DNA of 62,503 nucleotides, filler included, from Hausera hauseri (lineage: Eukaryota), in assembly GCA_046269625.1 (NCBI GenBank). It is 11 parts of 11 records of this genome, joined end to end, with 100 filler letters (N's around TTAATTAATTAA, not from the genome) between each part and the next. Parts side by side here need not be neighbours in the genome. Positions count along the whole stretch, not along the records: positions 33,814 to 38,176 come from JBJURY010616887.1; 10 more parts are not named here. One strand, written 5' to 3'. The notes under the pieces were generated by a model, which saw only the letters and a program-made list of their open reading frames with translations, did no database searches and was not told the origin of the DNA. How positions within the stretch are numbered: position 1 is the stretch's first letter; each line of letters starts with the position of its first letter. This document shows positions 1 through 52,101 of the stretch, in pieces. A program made the translations under genes and the position numbers.

Positions 1-1
1 T

Positions 2-2376
2 GTCAGTCGGGTTATGAACTTCATAAAATTCCCAGATGACGAAATGAAGGATGCATATAAGATGCTAGATAAAGCTATATTGGCAAAACCGATAATCGCC
101 AATCAATTGTTGGAATGGTCCGAATTAATAATGAGACTAAGTAAAGTAGTGGAAAACCGTAAGAAAGAATTCTCAGAAAGTCAACAATCTGTAAGAAAGC
201 AATTAGAAGAAAATTCGCGTAATTTAGATACAATACAAGCCTAAATAGACATCCGAACGCAGTTCAAAGCATTACGACGACTAAATATTATGAGGAAGAA
301 GCAAGAAACGACGATATTGGAAGAGATTTATAAAATGATCAAAGAAACAAACTTTACAGAAAAGTGAAATATGAATTGCTATTTTTACCCAAGATTAAAG
401 AATATCCGACTAGAAGAAGTCCAACATTTAACATCTAAATCTATTGACGAAATTTCAATGCAGGATATTGAAACTTTAGATATTTGTACAGAACATAAAG
501 CGGGTATAGAAGAAGTTATGAGATTCATACGTAAGCCGCAAGAATGTGTGACCGGAACGGATCAAAATTACCATACGGAGTTGACAAAAATAAGAAACGA
601 CCAACATCTTAGTTTTGAAGAATCTAAGTTCGTAAAGTAATTGCTTGATGCAGTAGATCCCGACTCAAAAATCATTAATGAGATGTACGAGTTAGCTTTT
701 CTGTTAGTAGAAATGTCAGAAATTAACGATGAAAAGATGATACAATTGACGCCTAAAATGAGACAAGTTGAAAAAACATGCATTAAAACTTAACAAAGAG
801 CAATCAGGTTAGACGAACTAATGAAAGAACTCGAAGTCTATCGGATCAAATATGCTTTTACCGACTCAGAGATCAAAAATAATCCTGAATTTGTACAAAG
901 ATGGCAAAGAGATGTAATCATAGAGCTAACTGACTATCACCAAAAAGAATTCATCTATTCTAATGAATTGTGCGAACTACTAAAAATGATTCAAAACGAC
1001 TGTGGAAACATGTTTGACTTCCGCACTACGCAGATGAAAGAATTACAACCGATGTTAAAAGAAATTCAAGAGAATGTAAAAAGGACGAATACAACACTGG
1101 CAAACTATGGATTTCCAGACGTTGGAAATGAGCCGGAATGGGATGCGTACTTAGATGCATTAACGGCCGAAAATCCTGTGACTCCAGTACAGCTAAATGA
1201 AATCGAAACCTATCCGCAGAGTGGGAGATTCAATGTGGAGATGCTCCCGTATTCGGCACTAGCTGAAAAAGATTTAATTGAACCAATTAACGTAAACATT
1301 ACTGAAAGTAAATTAAGACAACTTATTCCGATCCTAACTAAATTATCTAGTGAGCATACAATTTATAGTGCGGTGCCGAAACAATTGATAATGAAATACT
1401 CTAAAATTCTGAGGACTAAACCTGAGGTAACGATGAAAGAAAGGGTATCTTCCGAGTGGATGGATGAAAAAGAATGCGAGCTAAGCACTTATTCCTATGT
1501 AAGGGACCTAGGAGAATGGTTATTAAATAATGGCGGAACAAACGAGATAAACTATATATTCTATTTTACAGGTAGAATACTAGATGATTTTGAGCAATTA
1601 ATCGATGTTGGGGTTATCCCCGACGATATAAATTGAATAGTGGTTACAATGACTAATGAACAGACCAAGGAAAAACCCACACGAAAGGTCAAGATACAAC
1701 AATGCGTAGGACAAATTATGGGAGTCCGAGACGCCGCAATATATTTTGAATACTTACAAACAGACGAAGACAAGGAACAATACGGTAAGAATTTGGTGCC
1801 TCTGAGTACAATTACCACAACCGTTCCAAAACAAAGACGCCCGGTAGGTAGACCCGGGAAAATAGGAGAAGACGTTGACTACAACGGAAAATTAATTATA
1901 GAATTGAAACAAATGTCGATTCCTACCTTCAGCACAGACAACGAAGAATTAAGTGTATTAATGAAAATTTGATAGGAATTGTAAATTATTCAATCTTTCG
2001 GGGTAACACATTAGATGAGAAAGAAAAAGCGATATTCAATGCGGCTAAGATAATGAGAAGTTAACTTTTCAAAATATAAAAAAGTAATCTAACCGATGAA
2101 TCAGTGATCGAAAAGATAATAGTAGAGAATACAGTAGAGGAGCTAAGGAAGGTATTACTGTACTTAGCCATCAAGACAAATCCCAGTCGAGAGAATGAAT
2201 TTAGCAGAGCTACACGCTTGGCGCGGAGAGCGGCAAGAAAGCTGCCCTGAGAAGTAAATTGGTCGAGATTATTTAATAAGGAAGAAGACAAAAGGACCGG
2301 TAATAATAATAGACTTAAAGATATGTTACGTAATTTGACGACGACGAATAATAGTAACCGGAAAAACGAATCCAGT
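2..2376 (+). pseudogene. Large N-terminal region of the retroelement polyprotein (gag position; helical/charged, unassigned)
   Basis: ORFs 14-244, 371-640, 821-1636 and 1640-1972 share one frame, separated by stops, several of which are sense codons in copy 2 (e.g. TAA 242 vs GAA; TAA 638 vs AAA). No CCHC knuckle seen; contains RRPVGRPGK. Confidence 0.75.
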
Positions 2377-4248
2377 TGGTTAATTAGTTTACTCACCTTG
2401 ATGATGCTAGTAAAGCAATTAGGTGCTGTTACCGTCTACGATTGCGATAAATTTAAACTAGGGCAAAAATATTCTCTGGTGGATTTAGAGGCCTGTGAAG
2501 ATGCCAAACCGCATAAACTAGAAACAATGCAGAAAGGTTACTTTCTTTATCAACAGCAAGAATTAGTATCTTTGGACGGAATGGAATGTATGTTGAGACG
2601 CTCCCGTAGCATTTTTCACTGCGGAGTAATGCACGGACATTCTTCCATAATCAAACCAACAACTCCCCCAATTCCGATGAATCTGGAACGCCAGCATTGT
2701 AAGCAGGCCAGAAAAACCGGAAGATTAAAATAGTATAGCAGGGAACTAGAAATTAAACCGGAAAAGATAATTAGGGCATATAAAGTAGTAATCGGAAGAC
2801 CAGACGTGCATAACGGACATTGTAGTGGAACAGAGTATGACACTGGAAAAGACTAGAAGCAAACGTAGTTGTCGTAGACTTCTATAAATCAGAGATGCGA
2901 GTACAGAAAGTAATGTTCCATAGCGTTACAAAATTATAAACCGAAAACCAAAAAATGCCATTTACAAGACGAAATGTGTGCATTTAGAAGTTCTGTTATA
3001 ATATGGGAACCTCCCTCTGGAAGAATCTGTAATTTTATAAAAATCAAGGAACTGAAATTTAACGAAACTACTGGAAATCCATATGCAGATAAATCCTACA
3101 TCAACTCAAAAACACGCGAGGAGGTAGCAGAACATCCTGCACCTACTATATTGATCTCCGACCAACATGGACTAAAGTTTATTAAGAAAGAAATGATTTC
3201 TCGTTGCGAAGTCGTGATGTTTGCCACTAAATATAAAGCATTTTTCGTCGCAGAAACGGAAATAAATGCGAAAACTTTCAAACTAGATACGCAAGATATT
3301 CGGATCGAGGATTACCTAAAGAACCTAGGCGACTATTTTTATTACAAAGGACAAGTTGGAATAGCCGAGCTATACCATAAAACGATAACGAACGATTGTA
3401 AGTTAGACATGGAAATTATGAGGACAAAATTAGCTCTCATTTATTTGAACCCTGAGTTAGCGGCACCAACAATTCCCATAAGAGAAGGAATTTTCAGTCG
3501 AGTTACTGGTGAAGTTCTATTGACTTACGAATGTAAAAAACGGGACGTACAAATTAATGTCGAAGATAAACGTTGTATACAATAACTCCCCGTTATTTAT
3601 CAGAACACCCCACTGTTAGCCATGCCACTTACCAGAGTACTGTTAGATAACGCGACTCAACCAACAATCCTTAAGGAATGTAGGACAAGTTTAGGAGAAC
3701 CTATGTTTAGACGTAGTGAAACGTATTGGGTTATTTTACCTAATGGAGGTATTACTGCCGTCCAGATTAAGTTAACGGAAACTAATTTCGTAAAGGGAAT
3801 TACAGATGATAAATTTCAGGACACCACATCAAAAGGCACTTATAGTCCAAAGGGAATTGAGGCCTTTAAACAATTTCTTGCTTTTCCGCGACAGTTGACA
3901 CATGAATTAAATCGAGCCATGGCCTCCATAATAGATGATACTCGTTACCAAGCTAAATGGGAATCCTTGCTCGGAGTAAACTATTACCAACGAGTAACCA
4001 CAGAAATACTCTATAAAATTTGGGGAAGATTTTTAATTTTTGGACAAGTCGCATCTGGATTTCTAGCGATATATTTCCTAATACAGCTGATTAAGACCGT
4101 CATCCAAGCAGTAATAAATAGATATGAAATATTTACATTGACCGGATTTTTGCGTAAAATTTTGACTGCGATAATAATGCCATTTTGGAAGTTTTTAAAG
4201 GCCTATGAAGAAAGCAGGTGGAAATCGGACGTAGAACGGTTATCATAA
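2377..4248 (+). pseudogene. Chuvirus-like envelope glycoprotein, copy 1 (disrupted)
   Basis: Signal-like WLISLLTLMMLVKQLGA, then VYDC...YSLVDLEAC...C..RRSRSIFHCG.HGHSSI; CKLDMEI...LA...P.LA...EG..RVTGEV...EC...C..LPV...PLTRVL; C-terminal FGQVASGFLAIYFLIQLIK TM. This Cys/motif pattern is the one I recall for Chuviridae G and chuvirus-derived EVEs. N-glycosylation sequons NET and NAT. Confidence 0.8.
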
Positions 4249-4869
4249 TCGTAAACGAAAAGGAAAACCGATGTTCTTGTACAAGCGGAAATTCACAAAA
4301 TCTAATATACGGAGAGGTAATTCGGATTATGACGAGCCTAAGGGAGAAGAAGTACTTTCGAGAACAAGTAGGCACAAGACATATTCTATTATTAAATCAA
4401 CACTGCCTATGCTACCCCGTACTGCTCCGTCTATAAAGACTGTGACGAGCGGTCAATGAGCTCATACCAGACAGAAGTTTATAAGAGAACAACTAGCTTA
4501 GAAGACCCGTATGAAGGAACAAAACGGTATGGAATTTTGCAGAAAATGAGCTACCGACGGCCAATGAATGATTTTAGAATCTTGTACTCCCCACGGAAAC
4601 CCCGAAATATAGAAACAAGACCACCTGACTGGGGAAATCAAAAGTTACAAATCTTTCTGGATATAGAACCACACATTAGTACCCGCGAACCACTGATTGG
4701 TACACCCAAGTAGAAGAATTGAACATCGAAAACAATAAATTACAATCAAATGGTGAATTGAGACAGTTAACAGAAAACATAGTATCATCTGCGGAAATCA
4801 CGATAAACGGTCACAAAATATCGGCAACAAAACGCCCTAAGACTGCATCAAACTGCTTCGGGACAGTAA

Positions 4870-5200
4870 TAGAGGGAAGAACCTTCGCCAAAATTAATAC
4901 TGAGGATTGGTAAGTTTGTCCATTAATTGATACAGGATCTGAGATATCATGCATTAAAAATGACTCAGTTCCTTAAGTCCTAAGAGGACAATTATACCCA
5001 CTATCTACAAAGGATCCAGGAAGTACAGGAGCCTTTGGCCAAATGTAATTACCAATGTTCAAATAGAACCCAGAAGTTCAGATCATTAGACAGTTTTTCC
5101 ACCACGAATTTGCAGTTATGTAACAATTAACTGACGACGTAGTTTTAGGGTGTGATCTCCTAAAGAGACTACGAAATATAGCAATTGACTTGCAAACAGG
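4870..5200 (+). pseudogene. Retropepsin aspartic protease domain
   Basis: LIDTGSEISCI (DTG at 4929) and downstream VLGCDLL; internal stops. Confidence 0.9.
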
Positions 5201-5800
5201 AATATTAATAGAAATCCGGCCAGATAAAGGCGTGAAAAACGCTAAGGATAGGAAATTCGGAGAAGTGTGGATACCAGTAGATGAAAACATTCCACCGAGA
5301 ACGGAGATAATAATTTACGCGCAAATATAAGAAGATGACGATCAACCGGTATATTTTAAACCAAAGAAAACGTTAAATCCAAATATAACACTCAGTAACA
5401 TACTGAAAAGAGTACACTCCGGTCATGTACCGATCAGGATAGCAAATAATGCACCGACCCCCGTGAAGCTTCATGCTTATACTACTTTTGGAAATACCTA
5501 TAGAATGTCGTCATTAACTATTGAAGAAAAGCCTTATAAGCATGCAGAATTCCCACCTCATGTAGAAACTAAGTTTTTGCCTAAATCCTACTGCCTATTT
5601 TACGAATTAATGTGTCGTTATAAGTCAATAATTGCTAAGGACGACGAAAATATCGGCAGGGCTAAAGCATTAAAACAGACTATGCCACTTAAGAAAAAGC
5701 CTGGTTTGAACGAAGAAATAGATATCGAAGATCAAAATATGCCGAAATGGTATCCTCCGCCACACTTACTAAGACCAGAGATAGCAAAAAAGTCGAACGG

Positions 5801-6240
5801 ATGCTTAAGGCCGATATAATTAGGCCAGGTTATAGATCATGGTATTCACCGATCCTCATGTTTAAAAAGAAGGGTACTACAAAGCATCGATTTAGTACTG
5901 AATACAAAGCGTTGAATAATATAATGATAAAAGAATCTTTTCCATTGCCATCAGTAAAGGAAGCTCCAAACAGACTTTCAAGAGCCAAATAATTTACCAC
6001 TGTAAATTTACAATGTGGATATTGGCAAGTAGAAATCGAGGACGAAGATCGATATAAAACAGCGTTCAAGACACACGATGGCGTCTACAAATTTAATGTC
6101 ATGCAATTCGGTATCATTACCGGACCAGCTATTTTCACAAGAATAATGAACAAAACGTTAATGGGATTAGATTATGCCTTTGCATGTTTAGATGATGTAA
6201 TGATAGCGGCAAGGACAGAAGAAGACGATTTAAAGGAATA
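5801..6240 (+). pseudogene. Reverse transcriptase domain (degenerate, internally deleted)
   Basis: IIRPGYRSWYSPILMFKKKG..HRF, FPLP, GYWQVEI..DRYKTAF, FNVMQFG, and YAFACLDDV (YxDD position). The C-terminal palm/thumb part appears deleted near 6245. Confidence 0.93.
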
Positions 6241-6429
6241 TTGAGCATACTCTAATGCTAAGTCTCTGTGGATATTATGCCACTTATGCATTAGATAACT
6301 CAAAAAAAAATGCACCTCTATATCGCCTACTTAAAAAACGAATTAAATTGAAATGAACGGACGTCGAACAGAAGGCTTTTGACGAGATGAAGAATATATT
6401 AAGAAGTGAACAAGTTTTACGATACCAGA

Positions 6430-6810
6430 CTTCAATTTACTATTCATAATTAAGATAGATGCCAGTAAAGAAGGTATCGGATATGAATTAGCCGAGAAAA
6501 GAGAAGAGAAAAAATTAAAACACCAAATTGCTTATGGAGGACGTTCCCTGAGGACGGCCGAGAAAAACTATTCTGTTACTGAATTAGAAACTTTAGCCGT
6601 TAAAGAAGCCCTACGACATTTTAACGTTTACGTGTACGAACAGAAAATTATAATTGTTACTAACCATAAAGGTGTGACTACTTTAGAAGGACGAGCAAAC
6701 AGTCCCACTTGCAGGCTCAACAGATGGATCGAAGAAATTTCTAGATATAATATCGAGTTTCAGTATAAGCCAGGAAACAAACACATAGATAATAATGTAT
6801 TTTCCAGACT
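6430..6810 (+). pseudogene. RNase H domain (Ty3/gypsy type)
   Basis: IKIDASKEGIG, IAYGGRSLRTAEKNYSVTELETLAV, IVTNHK, RLNRW, YKPGNKH. Confidence 0.93.
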
Positions 6811-7079
6811 AAAAAATAAAACAATAATGAAGAAAACGCAACTCGAAGAAATAATAGATCGCCAACGTGTTTTAACACTGAAAAGGCGACCAAAATCTCA
6901 AGCGAACAAAAGAACGATAAAGTTATCCAGCAGTATATAGAATTTGTTAAAAAGGATATTATACCAAAAGGGTGGCAACTAAAAAAGCATCTACACAGAC
7001 ACGGGCACAAGTACTGTGTCTTGAATAACAACAGCAGTGAAGATATTCTATATTACAAACGCAAAAAAGGAAACTGAGA

Positions 7080-8120
7080 GTTATCCCAAAGAGTTTACGA
7101 ACTGAAGTTTTAATGGCGGAACATAATTCATATTTGGCAGGGCACATGCCCTGGAAGAAAACATTAAAGAGTATATTGAATAAATTCTTTTGGTCCAGTA
7201 TCTATATCGATGTGAAGAATTGAGTGAATGCTTGCGAAGTATTTGCGACTAAACAAAAAAAGACAAAGAATTACATGACCGAAAACCGATCAGTGTGCCG
7301 ATAGACCTATGCAAGCCATGTCAATGGATATCGTAGGACCGCTTCCTATGTCCCACAAAAATAATAAATATATCTTGACTTGTATTGATAGACTCACTCA
7401 TTTTGTCGAGTTAATAGCATTGATTGATTAGAAGGTAGAAACTTTTGCCGAAGCTGTAGTAAGAAGAATTATTTGCCGATATGGACCTCCAGACCAAATG
7501 TTAACAGATCGAAGAAGGAATTTTACAAGTGAACTATTCGAAAAAATTACCAAAATATGTGAAATCGAACGATTAACTACTACCGCGTATCATCAGCAGT
7601 GTAATGGAATTGTCGAACGAATGAATGCAACTGTCATACGCATACTATCAACAGTAGTAGCGAAAGACCAAAAAGATTGGGATGAATTCCTAGAAGGAAA
7701 TCAATTTGCCATTAACACTACTCCGCATCCCTCAAGAGGATTTACGCCATTTTTATGATGTACCGACGTGAAGCTGTGATACCCACAAACTTCGCAATCA
7801 ATCCCGAAGATTTCGAACAGAACTTTGTTGAAGTATTACAGACACGACTACAAAAATGTTGAGAAATCGCCAAGGAATTATCCAGAGAATATGAAGAACA
7901 GTTTAAAAAACAATACGATAGTAAGGCCAAGCCACACGATTTAGAACCAGGAAATTGGGTTTATGTGCGTTATCCGGTAGCCAAGAAAGGCACGTCATTA
8001 AAACTGACTTGTATAGGCAGAGGACCTTACGAAGTTACTAAAATCACACCAACTACAGTATACATCAACAAGAATGGAAAGGAAGAAGTTGTGTCAGCAC
8101 AAAGAGTTGTCAAGACGGAG
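7080..8120 (+). pseudogene. Integrase (HHCC zinc finger, DDE core, GPY/F module)
   Basis: EHNSYLAGH...FFW...ACEVF; SMDIVGPLP; RYGPPDQMLTDRRRNFTS; TTAYHQQCNGIVERMN; GRGPYEV. Confidence 0.93.
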
Positions 8121-8777
8121 ATAGGGCCCAATAAACATTACAATTTACGCCAACGAGAGAAAAAAACTTCTTCAATAATTGCTACACCTATATCGTACGT
8201 ACATATAGTTCTAGCACTATTACTAATTGCTTCTTACATTCCAAAAACACCAACTCAATGGTGGAACAATGAATCTATGTTAGGAGACGTATACGTAATA
8301 CGGAAAAGCGGGATAAAGGCGAAAAATACCATACCAGAGAAGAAACCAACCGCCGAAGAAATCCAAAGAAAAGAAGACACTAGATTATTACAATCGATGA
8401 CGGTTCAGTACTTTTCGCCAGACGCTGTGTGTGTTGGATTTAAAACGTGGAGGCCACATCATGATTTTGGGAGTTTTCAGATTATCCTATACGATAAAAT
8501 AACAAAAAAGAGGGAAAAATGTGATTTTGAACCCGGAATGTATACCCAGTGCTGCGACATAGATTTTGGACATACCTACATCCTTGCTTATTGCATGTTT
8601 TTGCCGGACTCAACAGAGATCTACATAGAAATAAATACACAACTTCTGTCGGTTATTCCCCCTTCGCCAGGGCGATTCGGAAGGAAACCCATCGAAATGC
8701 TACACTCCACCAATCCAGAGATAAGGATAGTAGACGAGAACATAAAAGAGATGTCAATAAATAAAGAAAAACGGTGA
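7965..8777 (+). CDS. Integrase C-terminus fused in frame to a hydrophobic segment and a Cys-rich domain of unknown function
   Basis: One 270-aa ORF: GPYEV, then YNLR, then hydrophobic ISYVHIVLALLLIASYI, then CDFEPGMYTQCCDIDFGHTY. Confidence 0.65.
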   Translation: MRYPVAKKGTSLKLTCIGRGPYEVTKITPTTVYINKNGKEEVVSAQRVVKTEIGPNKHYNLRQREKKTSSIIATPISYVHIVLALLLIASYIPKTPTQWWNNESMLGDVYVIRKSGIKAKNTIPEKKPTAEEIQRKEDTRLLQSMTVQYFSPDAVCVGFKTWRPHHDFGSFQIILYDKITKKREKCDFEPGMYTQCCDIDFGHTYILAYCMFLPDSTEIYIEINTQLLSVIPPSPGRFGRKPIEMLHSTNPEIRIVDENIKEMSINKEKR

Positions 8778-8794
8778 ATTTAAGCAAATGCACG

Positions 8795-8894: not shown

Positions 8895-11800
8895 AATAGA
8901 AAATGAAAAGCGAGCACAAATATATAGCCTGAGAAACCGAATTATGTCCCCAAACCAGGAGGAGACCCAATACGTAGTGAAAGCTTGTATCATAGAATTG
9001 GGCGAATACAAGGACGAGTTTAGCTATGTCAGCCGGATTATGAATTTCATAAAAGGACCAAATGATGAGTTAAAAGATACATATTAAATGCTAAATAAGA
9101 CCATAATAGCAAAGCCAATAATCTCCAACCAATTATCGGAATGGTCCGAATTAGTAATGCGACTAAGTAAATTAGCGGAAAACCGTAGGAAAGAATTTCC
9201 ATAGAGTGAGCCTGCTATAAGGAAACAGTTGGAAGAAAGCACATGTTATTTAGACACAATAAAGGCAGAAATAAATATTCGATTTCAATTTTAAGCTCTA
9301 CGATGGCTATATTTTATGAAGAAGAAACAAAAAACGACGATACTGGAAGAAATCTATAAAATGGTCGAAGAGACGAGTTTTAGAGAAAGGAAAATATGAC
9401 TTGTAATTTTTACCCGAGATTAAGAAATATCCGACTAGAAGGAGTTTAACATTTAACAGATAAACCTGTCAATGAGATCTGTGTCCAAGATATTGAAACC
9501 CTAGATATTTGTCCGGAACGTCGAGTTACTTTAACGGACGCAATAAAATTCTTGCATAAACCACAAGAATGGAAGACCGGACCAGATCAGAATTTCCATA
9601 CCGAGTTGACAAAGATAAGAGATGACCAACATCTTAGTTTCCAAAAATCTAAGTTCGTAAAGAAATTGTTGGATGCAATGGATCCCGACTGAAAAGTCAT
9701 AAATGAGATTACTTATTAGTAGAAATGGCAGAAATTAACGATGAAAAATGAAGCAATTGATTCCTAAAATAAGACAGGTTGAGGAAACCTGCATTAAAAC
9801 CAAACAAAGAGAGATAAGGTTAGACGATTTAGCAAAAGAACTCGAAATCTACCGAAATAAATATGCTTTCACCGAATAAGAGATCAAAAATAAGAGTGAA
9901 TTCGTACAAAGATAACAAAGAGACGTAATCATGGAGCTAACGGATTCTCACCAAAAAGGACTCATCAATTCTAATAAATTAGGCGAATTACTAAAAATGA
10001 TCCAGTATGCCTGTGGAAACGGAATAGGTTTCGAACTACGCAGATGAAGGAAATACAACCCAAATTGAAAGAAATTCGAGAAAATGCGCAAAGAAAGAAT
10101 ACAGCCTTAGTGGACTATAGACTTACAGATGTTGGAATCGAACCAGAATGGGATGCATACTTAGATGCGATAATGGCCGAAAAACCCGTAACTCCGGTAC
10201 GACTAAATGAGATAGAGACATATCCGCAGGACATGAGATTTATGTGGAAATGCTCCTGGATTCAGCGTTAACTGAAAAAGATTTAATCAAATTAATTAAC
10301 GTAAATATTACTAAAAGTAAGTTAAGGCAACTTATTCCGACATTAATTAAATTATCTAGTGAGAATACGATTTATATTACGGTGCCGAAACTTTTTGTAA
10401 GGAAATACATTAAAATCTTAAGGACTAAACCTGATATAACGATGAAGGCAATGGTATCGTCCGAGTGGATGGACGAAAAAGAATGTGAGTTAACTACATA
10501 CTCCTATGTAAAAGATGTGGGAGAATGGTTATCTAACAATGCCGGAACAAATGAGCTAAATTACAGTTTTTACTTTAGAGGTAGATGTCGGGATTATCCC
10601 CGACGAAACAAATCGGATAGTAATAATAATAGAAAATTAACAGACAAAAGAAGAAGCTACACGTAAAGCCAAAACGAAGCAGTGCGTAGGACAAATTATG
10701 TGAGTCTGAGATGCTACAATGTATTTCGAGTATTTACAATCGGATGAGGACAAGGAACAATACGATATAAATTTAGTACCACTGAGTGAATGAAGGGCCA
10801 AAGGCATAAACGTCCAGTTGGTAGACCTAAGAAAACGCGAGAAGAAGTGAATTATTATGGAGAATTGATTAGAGAATTGAGACATATGTCGATTCCAACT
10901 TTTAGTACAAACAGTAACGAGTTAAGTGAGTTAATGAAGAATTTAGTACGAATGGTAGATTATTCGAGCTTTCGAGGTGATGTATTAGATGATAGAGAAA
11001 AGATAATATTCAATGCAGTTAGAACGATGAGAAGTTTACGTTTTAAACTATCAAAAAGTAACTTAGCCGACGAATCGGTAATTGAAAAGATCATGGTTAA
11101 AAACACCAATGAGGAATTGAGAAAAGTATTACTATACTTATCTATCAAAATAAACCCTAATCGAGAGAACAAAATCAATAGAGCTGTAAGCTTAGCACGA
11201 AGAGCAGTGAGAAGATTGCCCTGCGATGTAAATTGGTCGAGACTATTTGACAAGGAGAACGACAGACGGGCTAGTAATATACTAGACGATATGCTACGTA
11301 ATTTGCATCGACAGATGTTGGCTACCGGAAAAACGAATCAAATTGGTTAATCAGCCTACTCAGCTTGATGATGTTAATAAAGCACTTAAGCGCTGTTACC
11401 ATCTACTACTGCGATAAGTTTAAACTAGGGCAGAGGTATTCCCTAATAGACTTAGAAGTATGCGAAGATGCAAGACCCCACAAGTTGGAAACAAGAGAGA
11501 AAAATTACTTCCTGTACCAACAACAAGAACTAATATCACTAGATGGGATGGAATGCATGTTGAGACTATCGCGTAGCATTTTTAATTGTGGGTTAGTACA
11601 CGAACATTCCTCCATAATCAAGCCGACAACTCCGCTAATCCCAATGAATTTAGAACGCCAGCGCTGAAAACAGGCCAAGGAAACTGCAAGAGTACAATGG
11701 GGCAATGTGCAATTAAAAATGCAACCAGGGAAGATAATTCGATCATACAAAGTAGTGGCGGGAAGGTTAGATATGCATAACGGACATTGTTACGGAGCAG

Positions 11801-12569
11801 AATACGACACCGGAAAAGGATTGTAAGCAAAAGTGGTAGTCGTAGATTTCTACGAAGCAGAGATGTGATCACAAAAAGTAATGTTTCATAGTGTCACTAA
11901 GTTATACACTGAGAATCAAAAATGTCACTTGCAAGATGGAACCTGTGCTTTTAGAAGTTCTGTTATAATATGGGAACCTTCCTCTTGTAAAAGCTGTAAT
12001 TTTATTAAAATTAAGGCATTAAAGTTTAATGAACCTACCGGAAAGCGATATGTAGATAAATCTGATACCAACTCAAAGACACGCGAAGACGTATCGGAAC
12101 ACCTTACACCCACTATGTTAATCTTGGATCAGCATGGACTGAAATTTATTAAAACGGAGATGATTTCCCGTTATGGAGTGGTAATGTTCGCCACAAACTA
12201 TGTCGCGTTTTTCATAGCCGAAACCGAGATAAATGCGAAAACCTATAAGTTGGAAACACAGGATATCCGGATTGAGGACTACTTGAAGAACACAGACGAT
12301 TACTTTTATTATAAGGGACAAATCGGAATAATGGAATTATATCACAAAATGATAACAAATGACTGTAAATTAGATACTGAGATCACGAGTACGAAATTGG
12401 CTCTCATCTACGCCAATCCGAAGTTAGCTTCGCCAATAATCCCTGTGAAGGAAGGAATTTGCGGACGAGTCACAGGCGAAGTATTGTTAACTTACGAATG
12501 TGAAAAGAAAGATGTACCATCAATGTGGAAGAAAAACCTTGCATTCAGGAACTTCCTGTTATTTATCAG
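8895..12569 (+). mobile_element. Same gypsy family, copy 2 (N-terminal region plus most of the glycoprotein; 3'-truncated near 12569)
   Basis: Colinear with 1-3603 (e.g. EPEWDAYLDA, SSEWMDEKECEL, CDKFKLGQ.YSL). Similarity stops abruptly after ...CCTGTTATTTATCAG. Confidence 0.93.
11344..12569 (+). pseudogene. Chuvirus-like glycoprotein, copy 2 (partial)
   Basis: ORFs 11365-11667 and 11881-12654 carry the same Cys pattern as copies 1 and 3. Confidence 0.8.
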
Positions 12570-13606
12570 TTTAGTAGATCGCGTTTCTACAATTCCGACC
12601 TCAACGTCATTCGATGATTGTAAGATTGAATTCTGCATAAAAAATTTATTATAAAAGTTTGTATAACAATTATCTCCTTCACTCATTAAATGATTCTTCT
12701 TTTCAATCTGTTTTTGAATTTCCTTAATATCCGTTTAAATTCCTCCTCACACTGAACTACTTGGTTGAGACATTTTCAATCATAACATTTGCCTACCTAT
12801 ATTCAATTTTTACACGAATTTTTGTTGGACGCCATATTTAAAATTTTAAAAGCCTGTTAAATATCTACAGTACATGTGCTTGTGTCTATCACTTATAACT
12901 GTATGCCTCCTATCTTCGCCTTATTAAACGTGCATGTGTATCATTTCCTCTCATCCTCGAACCACATCATGCGAAGTCTGAGCATAGAGGATTGGTGCAG
13001 TGTTCTCACTTCTATCTACTATTCACAAATAGTGCACTGCTTAAAAAACTAATCAACAAAATTTTTAATTTGAACATTTGCTGTATATATTGAGACGTGT
13101 GTGGTTTTACCTTGATGGTGTATGTTATCATATTCAATATATTCAAATTCAATTCTTTTTCATTTATCTTTTTGTGAACAAAATACTTTTATATTCTATA
13201 CATTTTAATACATATAAATACACTTTTACTTGTTACTTTTTTCTAACAATATGGCGACATTATATTTAAAGTTTTACTGAAATCAGATTAATGAAACCAT
13301 TTGTACGTAATAAATATTTCAAAGAATTTCATACTGGTTTCAGAAAATATTTTAATTATATCAAAAACATTATATTGTGCTTTATTATGTCGCCAGTGGC
13401 ATTTTTCATCTTGAAACTAATTTCAGTTACCAGTCTTGTGTGCTACTTTCCGTACAATCAATAATTGTACATAAACGGTATAAAATGAAATTAATTACAG
13501 TAGTACTTTACTTACGAGTAAAACAATTTTCTACATTTTAGACGGAACTATTTAGATTATGTACATTATCACTGCAGCATAGAAAGTTTTGTTCTTCATT
13601 TTACAA

Positions 13607-13706: not shown

Positions 13707-13902
13707 TAAATGAATTGTTGGACAGTTAAAACTAGTTAATGGAAATGTCCATTAACTATATTTCGGGACGTTACTACCTGGTTGACATTTACTGCCGTGA
13801 NNNNNNNNNNNNNNNNNNNNNNNNNNNNNNNNNNNNNNNNNNNNTTAATTAATTAANNNNNNNNNNNNNNNNNNNNNNNNNNNNNNNNNNNNNNNNNNNN
13901 AT

Positions 13903-22105: not shown

Positions 22106-22295
22106 CGATAAAAATTTATAGTAAATCCACAAAAATGTGAGATTTTTATTTTCGTTTATAAAAACTACAATTCCGTTGCTATGGTCGAATAGCAANNNNN
22201 NNNNNNNNNNNNNNNNNNNNNNNNNNNNNNNNNNNNNNNTTAATTAATTAANNNNNNNNNNNNNNNNNNNNNNNNNNNNNNNNNNNNNNNNNNNN

Positions 22296-23325: not shown

Positions 23326-23739
23326 ACTCGAAGGTGAGGTGGTGGAGAATGACAATAGGTTTGTTCTGCCCTAAGGAATCAAAAATCGATATTACATTGA
23401 GCGGGGACAGATAGGAAACCGAGTATGGAGATCTCGAATATCGAGTCGAATATTCGAATTTCGAAAATTTCCCCTTCTAAAATCGAACTTCTAACTTCCG
23501 AAAAATCTGATGACGGCATTCGCTTCCCCTTGTTCGAAAACCCCTTTATGCATTAAAGTTATTCCATAAAAATATGATATATAGATACAAAATCAATATT
23601 TAGAATTAAGCAAAATGTGCATTTAAAGCTCAGTGAAGCGGAAATCGATAAATCTAGTAGCGCATAGCGATAGGAACCCATAGATGGCGATTTGGATTAT
23701 GACATTCGAATTCGAGCTTAAAAGTCGAATATTTAGCTA

Positions 23740-25988
23740 TTGGAACTCATAAACTCGATCAAGCGTGCATTATTCGAAGAATCTAATGATGTAATTCGAA
23801 TCTCCATGTGTGAAAACCTTTTAAATTTGGCGCCGCAATTCTATGTAAACTCGTACGGGATCAAAAACATTCTTCACGAGTTTGGCTATATGAGGATCTG
23901 TAGCGCAAACTATGACTTCCAATGTATCACGTTCCCACCATCCATAGATGAAGTGAAGAAATTCAGTCGAATCAACAACATTTCCATCAATATCTTTGGA
24001 TTGGATGAGGACAAATTCTATCCCTTGCAAATATGTGATGCTGAATTGGAAGATCATACCTTGGAGCATCTACGTTGCAGAACATGTACATATGTGCCTG
24101 TAGTATTCCACAATCTCAGTGGCTATGATTCCCATTTCATAGTCCGAGAATTGGGAAACATTGAGGGGAACATTGATGTTATCCCAAAGAATGAAAAAAA
24201 AATGCGTCACTTTTACCAAACATGTTTGAAAAGTCCGACAACGCTTAGTAGGCAGCTTCCGCTTCATGTCGTCTTCACTTGACAGTTTAGTGAAGAACTT
24301 CTTCCCCACTACATTTGACCTAGTCAAGAGGAAAGGAGTGTTTCCCTATGATTAAATAACCTCATGGGGATGACTGCATGAGACTTCATTGCCGGACAAG
24401 GAGGGCTTTTATAGCCAGCTGTCGGACAGCCATATCAGTGATGAGGGCTGCCAGCATTCCCAAAATATCTGGCATGCATTCCAATGCAGGATTATTGGGG
24501 AATACAGCTATATATACCTCAAGACGGAAATGCTGCTGCTGACAGATGTCTTTGAGAACTTCAAGGATGTTACGATGAAGAGCCATGCATTGGATCCAGC
24601 TCATTTCCTTACGGCTCCAAGTATGAGTTAGGTAGCAATGCTGAGATATACCGGTATTAGGCTATAGATCATAAAGGATTATGACATGATCCTCATGATC
24701 GAGAGAGGCATTAGAGGCGGAATATGCCAGGCCATTCACCGTTATAGTGACGCCAGCAACACATATGGCCGAATACGATCAATCCAAGCCATCATCATAC
24801 ATAACATACCTAGATGCCAACAACTTGTATGGATGGGCAATGAGCGTCCATTTGCCATATGATGACTTCAAGTTGGTCGAGCATCCTGAAGATATCCCTA
24901 TACTGGACCTGGATCGCAGTAAAGATACGGACTACATACTGGAGGTGGATGTTGAATATCCACATAGCATTCACACAAGGCATGAACAGCTGCCTTTCCT
25001 CTCTGAGATCAAGCCTCCGCCCCATGGAAAGCATAGAAAGCTGCTCTGCTATGTGGATAGTAGGGAGAAGTATGTAGTCCACTACATAAATCTCCAGAAG
25101 GCGGTAAGAAATGGACTCCGCATTACTAAGATTCATCGGGCCCTGCAGTTCAGCTAATCCATGTGGCTGCAGCCCTACATAGATCTCAACACGAAGCTGA
25201 GGGTTAATGCCAAAAACAATTTTGAAAAAGATAAATTTAAACGGTATAATAACAGCGTTTTTGAAAAGACGATGGAGAATATCCGCAACAGGATCAACAT
25301 CGAGTTGGTCTGTGAGTGGAAACGGGCAAAGAAGCGCATTGACAAGCCCAACTTCCACAGCAGAACCATATATGCGGAGAACTTAGTTAGCATCCATAAG
25401 CTGAAAACATCCTTGCAATTCAGTAAGTATGTATATTAATGTATGGCAATACTAGACCTGTCAAAGATCTTGATGTGCAAATTCCACTACGACATCATGG
25501 TCCCCACATTCCAGTCCATACAGCCGATGTATATGGATACTGATAGTTTCATCTATCAGATCCATACAGAAGACTTTGCAAAATTAGCTCAGCATATGGA
25601 TACGTCGGACTATCCGAAGGAGCATCCCAACAATTCAATCGCCAACAAGAAAGTCCTTGGGAAATTCAAAGACGAGATGAATGAGGCAGTCATTTCGCGA
25701 TTTGTAGCTCTTAGGTCCAAATTGTATGTCCTTGATGTATGTGGCCAAGTAAAGAAGAGGGCTAAAGGGGTTCAAAGGGCGACCTTAGCCAAGAAGGTCA
25801 GCTTCGATGACTATGTCAGATTTCTGCATCAGCAAACTCACATAATATCAGAGATGCGCAGGATCCAGTCTAGGGCTCATACGATTGACACAATAACACT
25901 ACAGAAGAGCCTAGATTGGATGGATGACAAGAGACAGATCCCGGGTAATGGAATAATCACACTACCTCACGGGCAAGCTACATTGTGA
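23740..25988 (+). pseudogene. Protein-primed family B DNA polymerase (Polinton type), frameshifted with stops
   Basis: PVVFHNLSGYDSH, KGVFPYD, GIRGG, YLDANNLYGWAM, NNSVF.KTMEN, YMDTDSF, KRAKGV. Confidence 0.93.
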
Positions 25989-33519: not shown

Positions 33520-34538
33520 TTCTCGTGTGATTGATAAAATCTGTGTTTATTGGGGTACAAGTACTTAAAGGTGAAAATATTCCCCCGCGGAGCGGCACCG
33601 CGAAAACAATGGCCAGACGTGTTTGTAAAATTAACGTATATTCCCTTTCATATGGTTATATATTGGGTAGGAGAGCTTGGGAATTAAAGTGGTATATGAA
33701 TTACATTGTGTGGNNNNNNNNNNNNNNNNNNNNNNNNNNNNNNNNNNNNNNNNNNNNTTAATTAATTAANNNNNNNNNNNNNNNNNNNNNNNNNNNNNNN
33801 NNNNNNNNNNNNNGTAATAGCCAACGAACAGACAAAAGAAGAAGCTACACGTAAAGCCAAAGCAGAACAATGCGTAGGGCAAATCATGGGAGTTCGAGAC
33901 GCTGCACTATATTTTGAGTATTTGCAAACAGACGAAGATAAGGAACAATACGACATAAATCTAGTACCACTAAGTGAAACAACCATTAAGGGTCCAAGAC
34001 CGAAACGCCCAATAGGCAGACCTAGGAAACTGCGAGAAGAAGTTGATTACAACGGAGAATTAATTAAAGAATTGAGACAGATGTCGATTCCGACTCTTAG
34101 CCCAGATAACGAGGAATTCAGAGAGTTAATAAAAATTTAATACCTATTGTGAATTATTCTATTTTTCGAGGAGATGCGTTGGATAATAAAGAAAAGATAA
34201 TTCTCGATGCATCCAAAATGATGAGAAGTTCACGTTTCAAACTATCAGAAAGTAACTTAACCGACGAGTCAGTGATAGAAAAGATCATGGTGGAAAACAC
34301 GAATGAAGAATTAAGAAAAGTATTACTATACTTAGCTAACAAAATAAATCCTAATCGAGAGAATGAAATCAATAGGACTATAGGCTTAGCACGGAGAGCG
34401 GCAAGAAGAATGCCTTGCGAAGTAAATTGGGCAAGACTATTTGACAAGGAAGAGGACAAACGAAACAACAATAAACTCGACGATATGTTACGTAGCCTGA
34501 CGACGTCAGACGTTGGAGGTCGAAAAAATGAATCAAAT

Positions 34539-36390
34539 TGGCTAATTAACTTGCTTACTTTAATGATGCTAATAATGCAGATAAGCGCGGTAACCGTCTA
34601 TGATTGCGATAAGTTTAAATTAGGAGAGAAATATTCTTTAATAGATCTAGAAGTATGCGAGGACGCCAGGCCGCACAAATTGGAAACAAGAGAAAAAAGT
34701 TACTTTCTTTATCAACAACAAAAATTGATATCATTAGATGGAATGGAGTGTATGTTGAGACGATCGCGTAGTATCTTCCACTGTGGACTAATACACGGAC
34801 ATTCCTCTATAATTAAGCCAACTACTCCGCTAATTCCAATGTATTTAGAACGCCAACATTGCAAACAAGCTAAAGGGAACGGAAGAGTACAATGGGATAG
34901 TATACAATTAGAAATGCAACCAGGAAAGATAATCAGAGCATACAAAGTAGTAGCTAAACGGCTGGATATGCATACCGGACATTGCAATGGAGCAGAATAC
35001 GATACCGGTAAAGGATTAGAACCAAACGTGGTAGGTGTGGATTTCTAAAAATCAGAAATGCGATCACAGAAGGTAATGTTCCATAGTGTCACTAAGTTAT
35101 GCACTGAGAATCAGAAATGCCATTTACAAGACGGAACCTGTGCTTTTAGAAGTTTGGTAATAATATGGGAACCTCCCTCTGGAAGAAGCTGTAACTTTAT
35201 CAAAAATAAGGAGCTAAAGTTTAATGAAACTACCGGAAAACGATATGTAGACAAATCGGAGACTAATTCAAGAACAAGCGAAGATGTATCGGAACACCCT
35301 ACACCTACGATATTAATCTCAGACCCGCATGGATTAAACTTTATAAAAAAAGAGATGATGACTCGCTGTGATGTAGTAATATTCGCCACGAACTATGAAG
35401 AGTTCTTTGTAGCCAAAACGGAGATAAACGCGAGGACCTACAAATTGGAAACACAAGATGTCCGGATTGAGGAATACATGAAAAATAGAGATGATTACTT
35501 CTACTATAAAGGACAAGTCGGAATAACGGAATTATATAATAAAATGATAATGAATGACTGCAAATTGGATATGGAAATCATGAGAACTAAAATGGCTCTG
35601 ATATATGCAAACCCAGAATTAACTTCACCAATAATTCCCATGAGAGAAGTCATTTTCGGTCGGGTAACAGGCGAAGTATTGCTAACTTATAAATGTGAAA
35701 ATAGAGATGTACCCATCAACGTGGAAGAAAAACGTTGCATCCAGGAACTTCCTGTTATTTACCAAAATATTCCAAGATTAGTTACACCGCTGACGAGAGT
35801 GTTACTGGATAACGCTACCCAGCCAACCATCCTTAAAAATTGCAAGGCAAGCTTAGGAGAACCCATGTTTAGACGTCGTGACACAGACTGGGTCAGCCTG
35901 CCGAATGGAGGTAGCATTGCCTCCCCAAATAAATTGACAGGAACAAATCTGGCGAAATGAATCACGGACGATAAATTTCAAAACACCTTATCAAAAGTTA
36001 TATCGAAAAGGAAGGAAGAAAATCGAAACTTTCAGACAATTTCTCGCCTTTCCGCGACAGCAGACACATGAATTAAGCCGAGCCATGGCTTCTGTAGTAG
36101 ATGATACACGATACCAGGCTAAATGGGAATCTTTACTTGGCGTAAATCATTACCAATGAGTAACCACTGAAATACACTATAAAATTTGGAGAGGATTTTT
36201 GATTTTCGGACAAGCAGCATCTGGATTTTTAGCGATATACTTTCTGATACTAATGATTAAGGCAGTTATCGAAGCAGTAATTAATGGATACGAGATATTT
36301 ACATTGACTGGATTCTCTTGCAAAATACTGACTGCAATCATAACGCCTTTTGGAAAATTCTTAAATGCATACAAAGAAAGTAGATGGAAA
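34539..36390 (+). pseudogene. Chuvirus-like glycoprotein, copy 3
   Basis: WLINLLTLMMLIMQISA|VTVYDC...IFHCGLIHGHSSI...NDCKLDMEI...RCIQELPVIY...PLTRVL...FGQAASGFLAIYFLILMIKAVIEAVINGYEIFTLTGF. Confidence 0.8.
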
Positions 36391-37248
36391 TTGGACGTAG
36401 AACTCCATGTTGGCTATTATAATCACAAGCGAAAAGGGAGACCTATATTCTTGCGGAAACGAAAAGTTACAAAACCTAGTACACAAAAAAATAATTCAGA
36501 TGATGACGAGCCTAAGGTAGGAGAGATACTTTCAGGTATGAACAGACACCAGATGTATTCTGTCATTAAAGCGCCATTGCCTATGCTACCTCCTACCGCT
36601 CCAATCTACGAAGACTGTAACAAACGATCAATGAGTTCATATCAGACAGAAATATGTAAAAGAACAATTAATGTTGAAGATCCTTATGAAGGAACAAAAC
36701 GTTACGGAATTCTACGTAAAATGTGCTACCGACAATCCACAGATGATCCCAAGATGTTGTACTCACCGAGGGAATCTAAGAATATAAAAACTAGATCAAC
36801 GGTCTGGGACAACTCAAGGCTAAAAACTTTCCAAAATACCGACTTAAACACTAACAATCGAGAACCATTAATTAGTACACATGAAACGGAAGAATTACAC
36901 ATAGAAAACAACGGGTTAGATCCAAACGGAGAATTAAGACAGTTGGCAGAGAATATAGTATCCTCCTCGGAAATGCGAATCAATGGACACAAAATATCAG
37001 TAACTAAAGGTTCAAAAGTAGCATCGAACTGTTTTGGAACGGTAATAGAAGGAAAGCCCTTTGCTAAAATTATTATCGAAGATTGGGAAGTCTATGCCTT
37101 AATTGATACAGGATCCGAAATGTCTTACATCAAAAATGATTCAATACCTCAAACACTGAGAGGACAATTATATCCACCGTCTACGAAAGATCCAGAAAAT
37201 ACAGGAGCTTTTGGCCAGATGTCAAAACTGGTGTCTAAATGGAACTAA
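36199..37248 (+). CDS. Uninterrupted ORF joining glycoprotein TM and tail to the aspartic protease
   Basis: 349 aa with TM (GFLAIYFLILMIKAVI) at the N-terminus and YALIDTGSEMSYI (DTG at 37105) near the C-terminus. Confidence 0.9.
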   Translation: MIFGQAASGFLAIYFLILMIKAVIEAVINGYEIFTLTGFSCKILTAIITPFGKFLNAYKESRWKLDVELHVGYYNHKRKGRPIFLRKRKVTKPSTQKNNSDDDEPKVGEILSGMNRHQMYSVIKAPLPMLPPTAPIYEDCNKRSMSSYQTEICKRTINVEDPYEGTKRYGILRKMCYRQSTDDPKMLYSPRESKNIKTRSTVWDNSRLKTFQNTDLNTNNREPLISTHETEELHIENNGLDPNGELRQLAENIVSSSEMRINGHKISVTKGSKVASNCFGTVIEGKPFAKIIIEDWEVYALIDTGSEMSYIKNDSIPQTLRGQLYPPSTKDPENTGAFGQMSKLVSKWN

Positions 37249-37975
37249 GAAATTCAAATAGTTGGACAGATTTTCCGTCACGAATTTGCAGTTATGGAAC
37301 AACTAACTGACGACGTAAATCTAGGATGCGACTTACTAAAAATATTACCAAATACAGCGATTGACCTACAAACAGGAAAATTAATAGAAATCAGACCAAA
37401 TAAAGGCGTAAAAACGCTAAAGATCGAAAATTTGGAGAAGTGTGGATACCAATCGAAGAAAACATTCCACCGAGAACAGAAATAATAATTTATGTTTAAG
37501 TTCAACAAGACAACGATCAACCGGTGTACTTCGAACCAAAGGAGACATTAAATTTAAATATAATACGAAGTACCATACTAACCAGAGTACACTCTGGTCG
37601 AGTGCCAATGAGATTAGCTAACAATGCGCAGACTCCCGTCAAGCTGATGCTTATACCACTCTAGGAGATACGTATGGGATATCCTCTATAATTATTGAAG
37701 AAAAGCCTTATAAATATGCCGAATTTCCACCTCATGTCGAAACTAAGTTCTTTCCCGAATCTTATTGTCGATTCTATGAATTATTATGCCGATATAAATC
37801 GATTATTGCTAAGGATGACGAAGACATCGGTAGAGCGAAAGCATTAAGATTGACTATTCCGTTCAAGAAAAAGCCCGGTTTGAATGAAGAAATAGATCTT
37901 GAGGATCAGAAGATGCCGAAATGGTACCCTCCACCACATTCGCTAAGGCCCGAGATAACAGAGGAAGTCGAATGA

Positions 37976-38176
37976 ATGCTTAAGGCCGATATAATTAGGC
38001 TCAGTTATAGATCCTGGTACTCACCTATCCTTATGGTTAAAAAGAAAGGTACTACGAAGCATCGATTCTGTATTGATTACAGAGCCTTAAATAATCTTAT
38101 GATGAAAGATTCCTTCCCATTACCGTCGGTAAAAGAGGCCTTAGACAGGCTCTCAGGAGCAAAATGGTTTACAACT
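37976..38176 (+). pseudogene. Reverse transcriptase N-terminus, copy 3 (runs off contig)
   Basis: SWYSPILMVKKKG..HRFCIDYRALN..FPLP..LDRLSGAKWFTT. Confidence 0.93.
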
Positions 38177-48154: not shown

Positions 48155-50860
48155 AGGTACTCAACTGAGCCTGCCATGTTTGCTTGTGGTAGGTTGACCA
48201 TTATGTCGTCCAGTTCTTGTCTGTCGACTACCCATTGAAATGAACCGTACGGCAAGCGTTGACAAAGCGCCCAGCCGTACAGGTTATTAATATAAATATA
48301 CAGATGTGATGTGATATCGGTAGCACTGACCTGATGCTTGTTGATAAATGTCATGGCGCCGCGAATACCAACATCAAATATTCGGTATATTTCCAGGTTT
48401 TGCAGTATTTCAATATCTCGATCCAGTGACATTAGAGCTGACGCCCAACTAATTCCTGTTATGGAATAAAAGTTGAGTTACTCCAACCTATCTTCTGCCA
48501 GCGCTTTGGTTTAAAATGCTTCAGACACGTCGGTTAATAAGTACACGTCCAGTTTAAGATACTGAAGGATGTAATCCAACATGTTTCTACAGCCGAGTTC
48601 TGTCCAACACCTGTGCTTTGCAGTATTTATCCTCTGCGGTACCTGTCCATCGCGGCGGTAATTCCTGTGCTGTCCGGAGTTGTTCATATGATGTTGCAAA
48701 TTTATATGGAAATATGACTTTACTGCGTGATATATGTGAAAGGAACTGCGTCAGTGCTATCGGCACATCTGGCAAGGCATTTACCACCTTTGCCAATGAT
48801 TTATTGAGAAATTGCAATGCACAAGGGAAGCGTCCCTGGAACCGGTTAATACCAGCATACAGTGAGAAGTATTTCTCCCTCGTAGTCGGAATTATTGAGA
48901 GTTCCCAGTGCGGGAAGCCGTCAATGCCCCTATTGAGAATATGGTGACAGTCATAACCTCGGAAATTATGAAAGATCACTGGCAGGAATGGTCGCACTCG
49001 CCTTACTAAATTGCATGAATTGCATGTTGCTCCCAAGTATCGACCGGTGAAATGTTCGTGATCCGGTACGAGCCGTTCCTATGCATCAAACGGTATTCTT
49101 TTGTGGCACATATAGCATTCATCGATGAACGCGAAAAGCAACGGTTGATATTCGTCTGCCCAAATCAGAGGCTTATTGCAATTGTTACGATACCACGGCG
49201 CGATTTCCGTTTCCACTATGGTTTCCAGCTGCTGCAGGAAATCACGTACACTATTCCGACCATGGAAAACGTAATACTGCGGTTGTCCGGCGGCTTTTAT
49301 TGGTACCAGCAACGGCAATTGGAACGTGCTTTTGATCGTATACATTGTGCCGTGGTAGAATTCCTTCGATATCGGCATACATCAGACATGCAGGACTGTT
49401 CGTTTTTGACCAGTCAGTGAATCTCAACTCCTTTTTGACTGGCATAACATACATTGTGGTTCCTGACGAATTTTTGCTGAACAGCGTTACATGCTTTTCT
49501 CATGTCTCATTTGACCGGAATCTATGCAGACACACTGGACACCATTTGCATTGTATTCGCCATTTGGTGAACTGGTCATGCTCTATGTTTAACAATCTGT
49601 CCAAATTGGTCACGGCCTTGTAATGAAGCTTTTCTTCATTTTCCAACAGCAACAAATTTACTGGGCGTTTAATTGGATTTCGACTGCGGTAAATTATGTC
49701 CACGTGACGATTCTTGTAAATTTCCTCATCCACCGGTATCTCCACGATTGTGTTGAACCGGAACACGTTGATTCCTAGTGTCGGATTACGCCGTTCAAAA
49801 TCCGGAATGGATTTCAGTTTCATCTGCATCCAACACTTGTCGTAGTTTAATTCTCAGAAATACTGTACTGCTTTGGACAATTTGCATGATGTCTGAATAC
49901 TTGATCATATTTCATTATGTCCAGAATGCGGTAAATAAAACAGTATTCGTCGTTAATATTTTGCACATTCACTACCGTCAGAGACTGCTTCAAGGATGCA
50001 GGTCTCGGCATGAATGAACTTCAGGACAGGTAAATAATGTCACTCGTCTTGGTCAGAATAAAGCCTAGAGTGACAATCTTTACCATTTGCCAACCAGTGC
50101 CCTTTTTTGTAGTTGGCGATATTTTCGTCAAGCTTTTCGCCTACATTGGCAATAAAATTCTCAGAGTATGGTATGGCTCGATGTGACAGATACTATTGTT
50201 TCCTGTCACCCTGCAGATTTTCAAATTTTCCAAGTGCATAATATTGCACTTTGCAGTGGTCTTGTTGGAATTTGGCCACCTCTGATTTCAACTTGTTACG
50301 TACATTAGCGGGTACATCTTTCAACTGCGTTGCTGTTTTCGCCGGCATGTCCACCTTTATGTCCACGTACGATCTGTTTAGGTCGTACTTGACAGTAATG
50401 GGCGGTTCACGTTCTTGCTGCAGCTTTTGCTGTTTCTGACTTCTGTAGTTTTGAAAGTATTCGTCAAGGCTTGCTGATGCTTGACGTTTCCTGATGCTGC
50501 TTCTTGCTGCGTCCATTAATATTTCCTTTTTGGACCTCTGAAACTGGTTCAAGTGGTATATGTGGTTATTGTAGAATTTTTCATAGTTGACTTGCGCCTC
50601 AACTATAGAACAACCGGGACAAACATAGACCCGTTTACCGTGCACCGATGTGGTTGTTGTTGTTGTTGTACCATAGTACTGTTCCATTGCACTATTGTAA
50701 CCATCAACGTCATGCACCTTACAAGTACAGTAACGTGGGTATGTGGGGCAATGCACATGCATCATCTTAGACCGCGTGAATGGACCGAGATGATGCTTGT
50801 GCATCTCATAAAAGTCGGCGTACGGGCATGTGTTTTGAATAAAACACACGGGACACAGTT
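48155..50860 (-). pseudogene. Protein-primed PolB of a second Polinton-like family, N-terminal two-thirds, degenerate
   Basis: PDFERRNPTLGINVF, LHYKAVTNLDRLL, CPVC, YADIEG, CYMC..HFTGRYLGATCNSCNL (endonuclease VII-like insert), PVIFHNFRGYDCH, YLKLDVYLL, GIRG, INNLYGWAL. Confidence 0.9.
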
Positions 50861-51967: not shown

Positions 51968-52101
51968 AAGCCATTTACTTGTTCGACTCAGACTTGACTT
52001 GGCAGCATACCTGATTGTTATAGCCAGACAGGTGTGGTTCGACCAAAAACTAGGTTACCGAAAAACTAAATGATCCTTATAGTTAGACACGTGAGGAAAT
52101 G

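Follow-up and report, generated by a model that had tools for sequence, protein, structure and literature searches.

The analysed 62,503-nt stretch of Hausera hauseri DNA (hereafter the window) carries, at 33814-38176 on the + strand, a decayed Ty3/gypsy gag-env-pol element in which the envelope protein (Env) and Pol share a single frame. Taken as a whole, the locus is very probably what remains of an animal LTR retroelement of the Burro-like Ty3/gypsy kind, with an inherited Env-Pol frame and a product that would be a polyprotein threaded through the ER. The element is not a retrovirus. Membership of Retroviridae was considered and rejected, as it predicts a separate env ORF downstream of pol and a class I fusion protein, whereas here env precedes pol and the Env fold is class III. 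A fusion of this kind has already been published, so we do not present it as new; the fresh points are a lead on late domains in the Env tail and the question of assembly.

The window is made of 11 contigs joined by N spacers, three of which bear copies of the element, all decayed and all on the + strand. Copy 1 (1..8794) runs from a region upstream of Env through a leader, Env, its tail, protease (PR), reverse transcriptase (RT), RNase H, then integrase (IN), to a C-terminal membrane domain, as identified by Pfam (RT_RNaseH and rve) and tblastn. Copy 2 (8895..12570) contains the upstream region, the leader and the 5′ part of Env (PF24664), and copy 3, the element described above, extends from the upstream region through the start of RT. 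Copies 1 and 3 are 76% identical at the nucleotide level, copies 2 and 3 are 81% identical, and copies 2 and 1 are 77% identical. Contig ends truncate each of the copies, and the element ends, LTRs, tRNA primer-binding site and 5′ gag fall outside the window.

Other contigs of the window hold further features. An intron-free DNA polymerase epsilon of 2185 aa (13901-22195) is convergent with a SNF2 helicase gene; it is animal-like, and none of its 92 matches exceeds 39% identity. This contig, which shows no tie to the element, suggests a divergent, gene-compact animal. An inverted region, 82-88% identical, is found on two contigs (48157-50425 and 53038-55300), and both segments, along with 23737-25985 and 55746-56387, look by eye in translation like decayed protein-primed DNA polymerase B of the Polinton/adintovirus type. 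A tandem array with a 68-nt period occupies 52031-52767, up to the contig end.

The fusion of Env to protease is seen directly in copy 3 as an open frame at 36160-37248 of 362 codons stop to stop, or 349 aa from a TTG at 36199, in agreement with the single 349-aa ORF running from transmembrane segment to protease that the first-pass annotation had reported. Residues 2-73 of this frame match the end of the PF24664 fusion glycoprotein (Pfam, E 1e-13), hydropathy marks residues 11-49 as a hydrophobic stretch, and residues 298-332 match RVP at E 0.013, under the gathering score. The frame is a remnant bounded by decay stops and does not constitute a separate gene. The stop that precedes it, at 36157, lies within Env; the stop that closes it, at 37246, lies within the protease and upstream of the second protease motif; and the TTG falls in the membrane-proximal helix of Env. 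No exact match to the 362-aa frame, or to the polymerase epsilon, was present in the protein library.

Three features follow one another along this part of copy 3, all on the + strand. The Env membrane anchor and a following hydrophobic helix (36190..36360) were recognized by hydropathy, with the same pattern in 11 relatives and a dN/dS of 0.08. They are followed by a linker (36376..37035) and then by the aspartic protease (37036..37360), which has its catalytic DTG at 37105 and matches the protease of a relative, P0002, by tblastn at E 3e-8. The protease had been called retroviral, which was not borne out, as it belongs to Ty3/gypsy pol. The linker had been described as about 240 aa long, basic and Pro-rich; it does join the anchor to the protease, but it is about 220 aa long (K+R 37, D+E 28 and P 13 of 220), its basic character is confined to the first 40 aa (12 K/R), and its richness in Pro to aa 110-150. 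Anchor and catalytic Asp are separated by 306 aa in copy 3 and by 131-391 aa among the relatives.

Within the window the linker is covered by copies 1 and 3 only; copy 2 stops before the anchor and thus provides no test of the fusion. Between copies 1 and 3 the linker has a dN/dS of 0.17 in the open frame, compared with 0.79 and 0.84 when the remaining frames are read, and shared stops number 0 in the open frame and 6 and 12 in the others. The first-pass annotation took a stop shared between copies as the mark of an accidental fusion, and we found none; both copies are free of stops at the 190 aligned codons, an open run expected by chance at about 8e-6 given the off-frame stop rate. Third positions hold most of the mismatches in every linker block between indels. 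However, with only two copies, of which copy 1 carries indels, the ancestral state is not polarised from the window alone.

Alternatively, Env and Pol could have been separate frames, connected by a programmed frameshift or stop, that an indel joined by accident in copy 3. We regard this as highly improbable. Three frame-breaking indels leave the anchor and protease of copy 1 out of frame with each other, and in the 120 nt leading up to the last linker indel the excess at third positions is weak (15/41, 12/40, 17/40), both of which would fit such an accident. Yet the two copies share no stops, selection acts on the open frame of copy 3 in every block, and apart from an A-run near 36485 the linker of copy 3 has no slippery heptamer of canonical type, while the heptamer of copy 1 at 4632 opens onto a frame closed by a stop. 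The state of the relatives also argues against an accident.

Searching the full library with copy 3 Env yielded 384 matches at E up to 0.001, 17 of them at E up to 1e-30 (P0001-P0017). These closest relatives are 26-33% identical to copy 3 in Env. We scanned 20 long matches with Pfam, 14 from the top 17 and 6 lower-scoring; the 3 top matches without a scan are short ectodomain pieces that contain no anchor or protease motif. An aspartic protease was found downstream of Env in the same polypeptide in 11 of the 14 scanned top relatives, 5 of which extend to RT and 4 to integrase, and in none of the 6 lower-scoring matches. P0010 stops within the ectodomain, and among the closest relatives that cover the anchor the fusion is present in 11/13. 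The remaining two, P0004 and P0014, extend no more than about 35 residues past the anchor, a break that decay, the end of a contig or a genuine stop would each explain. In a FastTree phylogeny of 29 ectodomains, copy 3 falls inside a clade of 15 (support 0.949), all 10 junction-covering members of which are fused, and 14 lower-scoring envs lie outside; these 14 were chosen and labelled by length, and the partial P0010, P0012 and P0016 were omitted. Given the purifying selection on the linker and the fusion in 11/13 anchor-bearing relatives, the sequences indicate that the fusion is inherited and not accidental.

Further searches were negative. A word-index search for longer proteins with the 362-aa frame returned 0 of 1576 candidates, which is weak evidence as the search was limited to 2000 aa, and residues 375-1190 of P0001 retrieved nothing beyond P0001 itself among 5663 candidates. 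At domain E <0.02, the copy 3 linker, the upstream region, the leader and the post-integrase domain had no domain-level similarity to the 17 relatives, and no hidden second protease was detected against them in the copy 3 linker. P0002, P0003, P0005, P0006, P0013 and P0016 carry between two and four aspartic-protease-like domains in tandem after Env, with one further protease motif downstream of integrase in P0002. P0001 comprises the whole of a gypsy env-pol polyprotein and is annotated as hypothetical in a Flavobacteriaceae MAG; its source is probably a mis-binned animal contig.

Downstream of the protease, copy 3 has a broken PR-RT spacer (37400..37975, +) at the place of the dUTPase-like domain of Burro. 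The spacer aligns with P0001 and P0002 and has a dN/dS of 0.06 in part, and no Pfam match to a dUTPase-like or other domain was found in the three pieces scanned. It is followed by the start of RT (37976..38176, +), recognized by tblastn against the RT regions of P0001, P0002, P0011 and P0015 and cut by the contig end. Copy 1 has the pol order PR-RT-RNase H-IN, as in Ty3/gypsy (Pfam and tblastn, with the class assigned by domain order). After its integrase, copy 1 encodes a signal-like hydrophobic segment and a Cys-containing domain (8175..8774, +), a layout common to P0001, P0002 and P0011. The post-integrase regions of these relatives (P0001 2257-2566, P0002 2485-2738, P0011 2779-3195) contain an extra membrane segment. 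The region is possibly a second membrane protein that closes the polyprotein; the Atlas search with this domain gave a best score of 0.87 and none of 0.9 or more.

The Env of copy 3 has a gB-type (class III) ectodomain (34590..36189, +) that is broken by stops and a frame change. PF24664 matches it at E 1e-13 and 2e-20, and the structure predicted for 34110-35957 (mean pLDDT 64) finds herpesvirus gB with a best E of 3e-12. The ectodomain is preceded by a putative internal signal peptide or signal anchor (34533..34589, +), a hydrophobic segment that closes on a small residue, after which cleavage would leave the mature N-terminus. In copy 3 and 11/17 relatives the signal-like hydrophobic segment ends four residues before a conserved (Y/F)DC. 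Upstream of the signal is a helical, presumably cytosolic leader (34131..34532, +; dN/dS 0.07) at the site of a Bcl-2-like domain in the relatives. Pfam detected Bcl-2 in the leaders of 4/4 relatives and 0/3 window copies, and a joint leader profile reached Bcl-xL no better than E 0.04. Foldseek found no match to a Bcl-2 fold at E up to 0.001 with a single-sequence model of pLDDT 47, and leader pLDDT was also below 50 in a second model.

The Gag side of copy 3 is represented by the end of the region upstream of Env (33817..34140, +), on a contig that starts at 33814. It has a dN/dS of 0.14 against copy 1, no Pfam match and a basic GRP motif at 34000-34030, which we take to be AT-hook-like. A basic GRP motif is also seen upstream of Env in the other two copies and in P0002, P0005, P0006 and P0010. 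It had been noted that no nucleocapsid CCHC knuckle precedes the protease. Indeed, the pattern is absent from the three + frames of all three copies, but the contigs start downstream of the position of CCHC in the relatives. There, CCHC knuckles are located upstream of Env in the same polypeptide in 6/17 relatives, with Retrotrans_gag at this place in one. The comparison suggests that the nucleocapsid has not been lost and lies upstream of Env in sequence beyond the contigs. The presence of CCHC upstream of Env in 6/17 relatives implies that Gag, Env and Pol would be co-translated.

Co-translation could instead be partial, if Env-Pol were a second frame entered through -1 frameshifting immediately ahead of the leader, with Gag made in excess. 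We consider this unlikely, and it is compatible with the Env-PR fusion. At the leader junction (about 34135 in copy 3, 1965 in copy 1 and 10940 in copy 2), copies 1 and 3, which have diverged under selection, shift frame at one shared place, and P0002-P0005 begin 130-160 residues before mature Env, although these starts may be contig ends. Copy 2, however, is continuous through the junction, as are eight relatives from far upstream into Env. The upstream frame contains no canonical slippery site, downstream structure is unstable (z -1.55 to +1.51), and the junction is an A-run, itself prone to slip. The frame change at the leader junction may be a programmed shift or decay in the A-run.

A continuous frame could also be compatible with Env and Pol being made from different spliced mRNAs, with tethered Env-Pol a minor product or absent. 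A 1:1 Gag:Env:Pol ratio would be unusual, and a gypsy element with a single ORF, Cer1 CERV, is known to yield spliced sub-genomic mRNAs in the portion of PMC10309623 available to us. However, coding selection spans the whole linker up to the protease and there is no sign of an intron, making this alternative quite improbable. Cer1 was also considered as an example of the same arrangement and rejected, as its arrangement differs in the accessible part of that source (PMC10309623).

Among known elements the one with the inherited Env-Pol frame described here most resembles Burro/GYPSM1, giant planarian gypsy elements with env in frame between gag and pol, the Env being related to mononegaviral fusion proteins, and with decayed copies in Dugesia japonica (PMC6431247, in the parts available). 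Copy 3 shares with Burro an Env in frame directly before the protease (by frame, Pfam and dN/dS), an Env akin to mononegaviral fusion glycoproteins (PF24664 and gB fold) and a spacer between PR and RT, which in Burro holds the dUTPase-like domain. The BCL2-like domain before Env is found in the relatives, whereas the window leaders have no detectable Bcl-2 signature. Burro elements are over 30 kb long, with long LTRs, BIR, MATH and ankyrin domains and an N-terminal Gag, and the window copies end before such regions. On the Gag side, copy 2 is continuous into Env whereas copies 1 and 3 shift frame before the leader. The accessible text of PMC6431247 makes no mention of tail motifs or of a post-integrase membrane domain in Burro.

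GAG-ENV-POL errantiviruses with HSV/gB-type Env have been described in Platyhelminthes, Nematoda and Bryozoa (PMC13524379, as far as available). They have the same gene order, with a gB-type Env upstream of Ty3/gypsy pol, and are intact and LTR-flanked, whereas the three window copies are decayed. By eye, copy 3 and P0001-P0007 resemble, in their ectodomains, six Schmidtea rows labelled 'Platyhelminthes_C1a' but none of ten bryozoan rows (PMC13524379, same parts). The text available from PMC13524379 contains no mention of in-frame fusion, topology, late domains or frameshift, and its figures may show ORF continuity. That text also cites nematode endogenous retroviruses (NERV) as having Env before pol (PMC13524379). 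The element described here has this order too. NERV, attributed to Sacco et al. 2022, reportedly have a continuous gag-env-pro-pol ORF and, to our knowledge, are restricted to nematodes.

The cytoplasmic side of Env can be compared between fused and unfused proteins. The first-pass annotation listed the Tyr motifs YSVI, PIYED and DPYEG in the copy 3 linker and YSII and DPYEG in copy 1, and proposed a trafficking role. These motifs are present. However, the trafficking signals were rejected, as YxxPhi occurs at chance level in the copy 3 linker (2 vs 1.96 from shuffles). YSII and DPYEG are found in copy 1, but this says little about conservation, as the linkers of the two copies are in any case 62% identical and those of the relatives are unalignable with that of copy 3.

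A different class of motif is enriched. YPxL, P(T/S)AP and PPxY are the three classical late-domain patterns that recruit ESCRT. Copy 3 has a PTAP (36592..36603, +; 0.002 by shuffle, though spotted post hoc and not at the matching place in copy 1), which we presume to be TSG101-type and late-domain-like. YP is found in the linkers of 10/11 relatives where 2.9 would be expected (P 0.04, family-wise for dipeptides), chiefly in the form PhiYPxL and 30-60 aa N-terminal of the catalytic Asp. We then asked the same of tails without a protease, taking the 96 matches of at least 560 aa among P0018-P0150 and dropping 28 in which the anchor went undetected or the tail was below 30 aa (n=68). YPx[LIVM] was present in 27/68 of these unfused tails, compared with 2.9 in shuffles (max 10) and 2 in ectodomain segments of the same length. 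P(T/S)AP was present in 10/68 (1.0 shuffled), PPxY in 11/68 (2.3 shuffled), and any of the three in 36/68 (5.9 shuffled), while the reversed control PY was not enriched in the 68 tails. The unfused tails are cluster representatives yet still related, so these counts are not independent. Since copy 3 has PTAP without YPxL and copy 1 lacks PTAP, the late-domain support is stronger for the Env family than for the copy 3 locus. As late-domain-like motifs are also found in unfused Env tails, the linker is best read, from these comparisons, as Env's own cytoplasmic tail, and it would have arrived with env when env inserted between gag and protease. We found no literature on late domains in the tails of chuvirus-like gB Envs within the sources covered, subscription journals being outside their scope.

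These features suggest a route for the polyprotein. It would be threaded through the ER membrane with the Gag-side region and leader in the cytosol, the internal signal peptide directing the gB-type ectodomain to the lumen and signal peptidase cutting between Env-Pol and the Gag side. Stop-transfer by the Env anchor would leave tail-PR-RT-RNase H-IN on the cytosolic face. Pol tethered to the membrane until released by the protease, as previously proposed, fits the topology predicted from the signal-like segment that precedes the ectodomain of copy 3 and of 11 relatives, and tethering is sound as a proposal insofar as signal peptidase would separate Env-Pol from Gag. The accompanying idea that Pol is packaged independently of Gag does not hold as worded: CCHC lies upstream of Env in 6/17 relatives, and only the covalent link to Gag would be lost, through the putative cleavage. 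Pol would be incorporated not as a Gag-Pol fusion but through a membrane patch shared with Gag and Env trimers, where crowding may drive protease dimerisation, freeing the enzymes and trimming the tail. Late-domain-like motifs in the tail probably recruit ESCRT for budding, which is the weakest step of the scheme.

Flaviviruses and hepaciviruses likewise make one ER-threaded polyprotein, with capsid, signal-anchored glycoprotein and cytosolic enzymes in order, which a viral protease cleaves together with signal peptidase. The likeness is in how the two would work and implies no homology, and the viral enzymes are unpackaged, whereas RT and IN must be packaged. Extending this comparison, we tentatively propose that Env and not Gag organises release by a flavivirus-type ER polyprotein assembly, with ESCRT late domains in the tail (YPxL, P(T/S)AP, PPxY) dragging Pol along and the post-integrase membrane protein perhaps pinning the other end of Pol. 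Late-domain tails may then be a general and apparently undescribed trait of the chuvirus-like gB fusogens of retroelements.

The question that the element raises is one of assembly, as there would be no Gag-Pol packaging once signal peptidase parts Pol from Gag. The relatives make this question approachable, with their conserved signal site, tail motifs, sometimes tandem proteases and second membrane domain. If the tail motifs do recruit ESCRT, budding would be driven by Env, unlike in orthoretroviruses, which bears on whether such elements spread from cell to cell at all.
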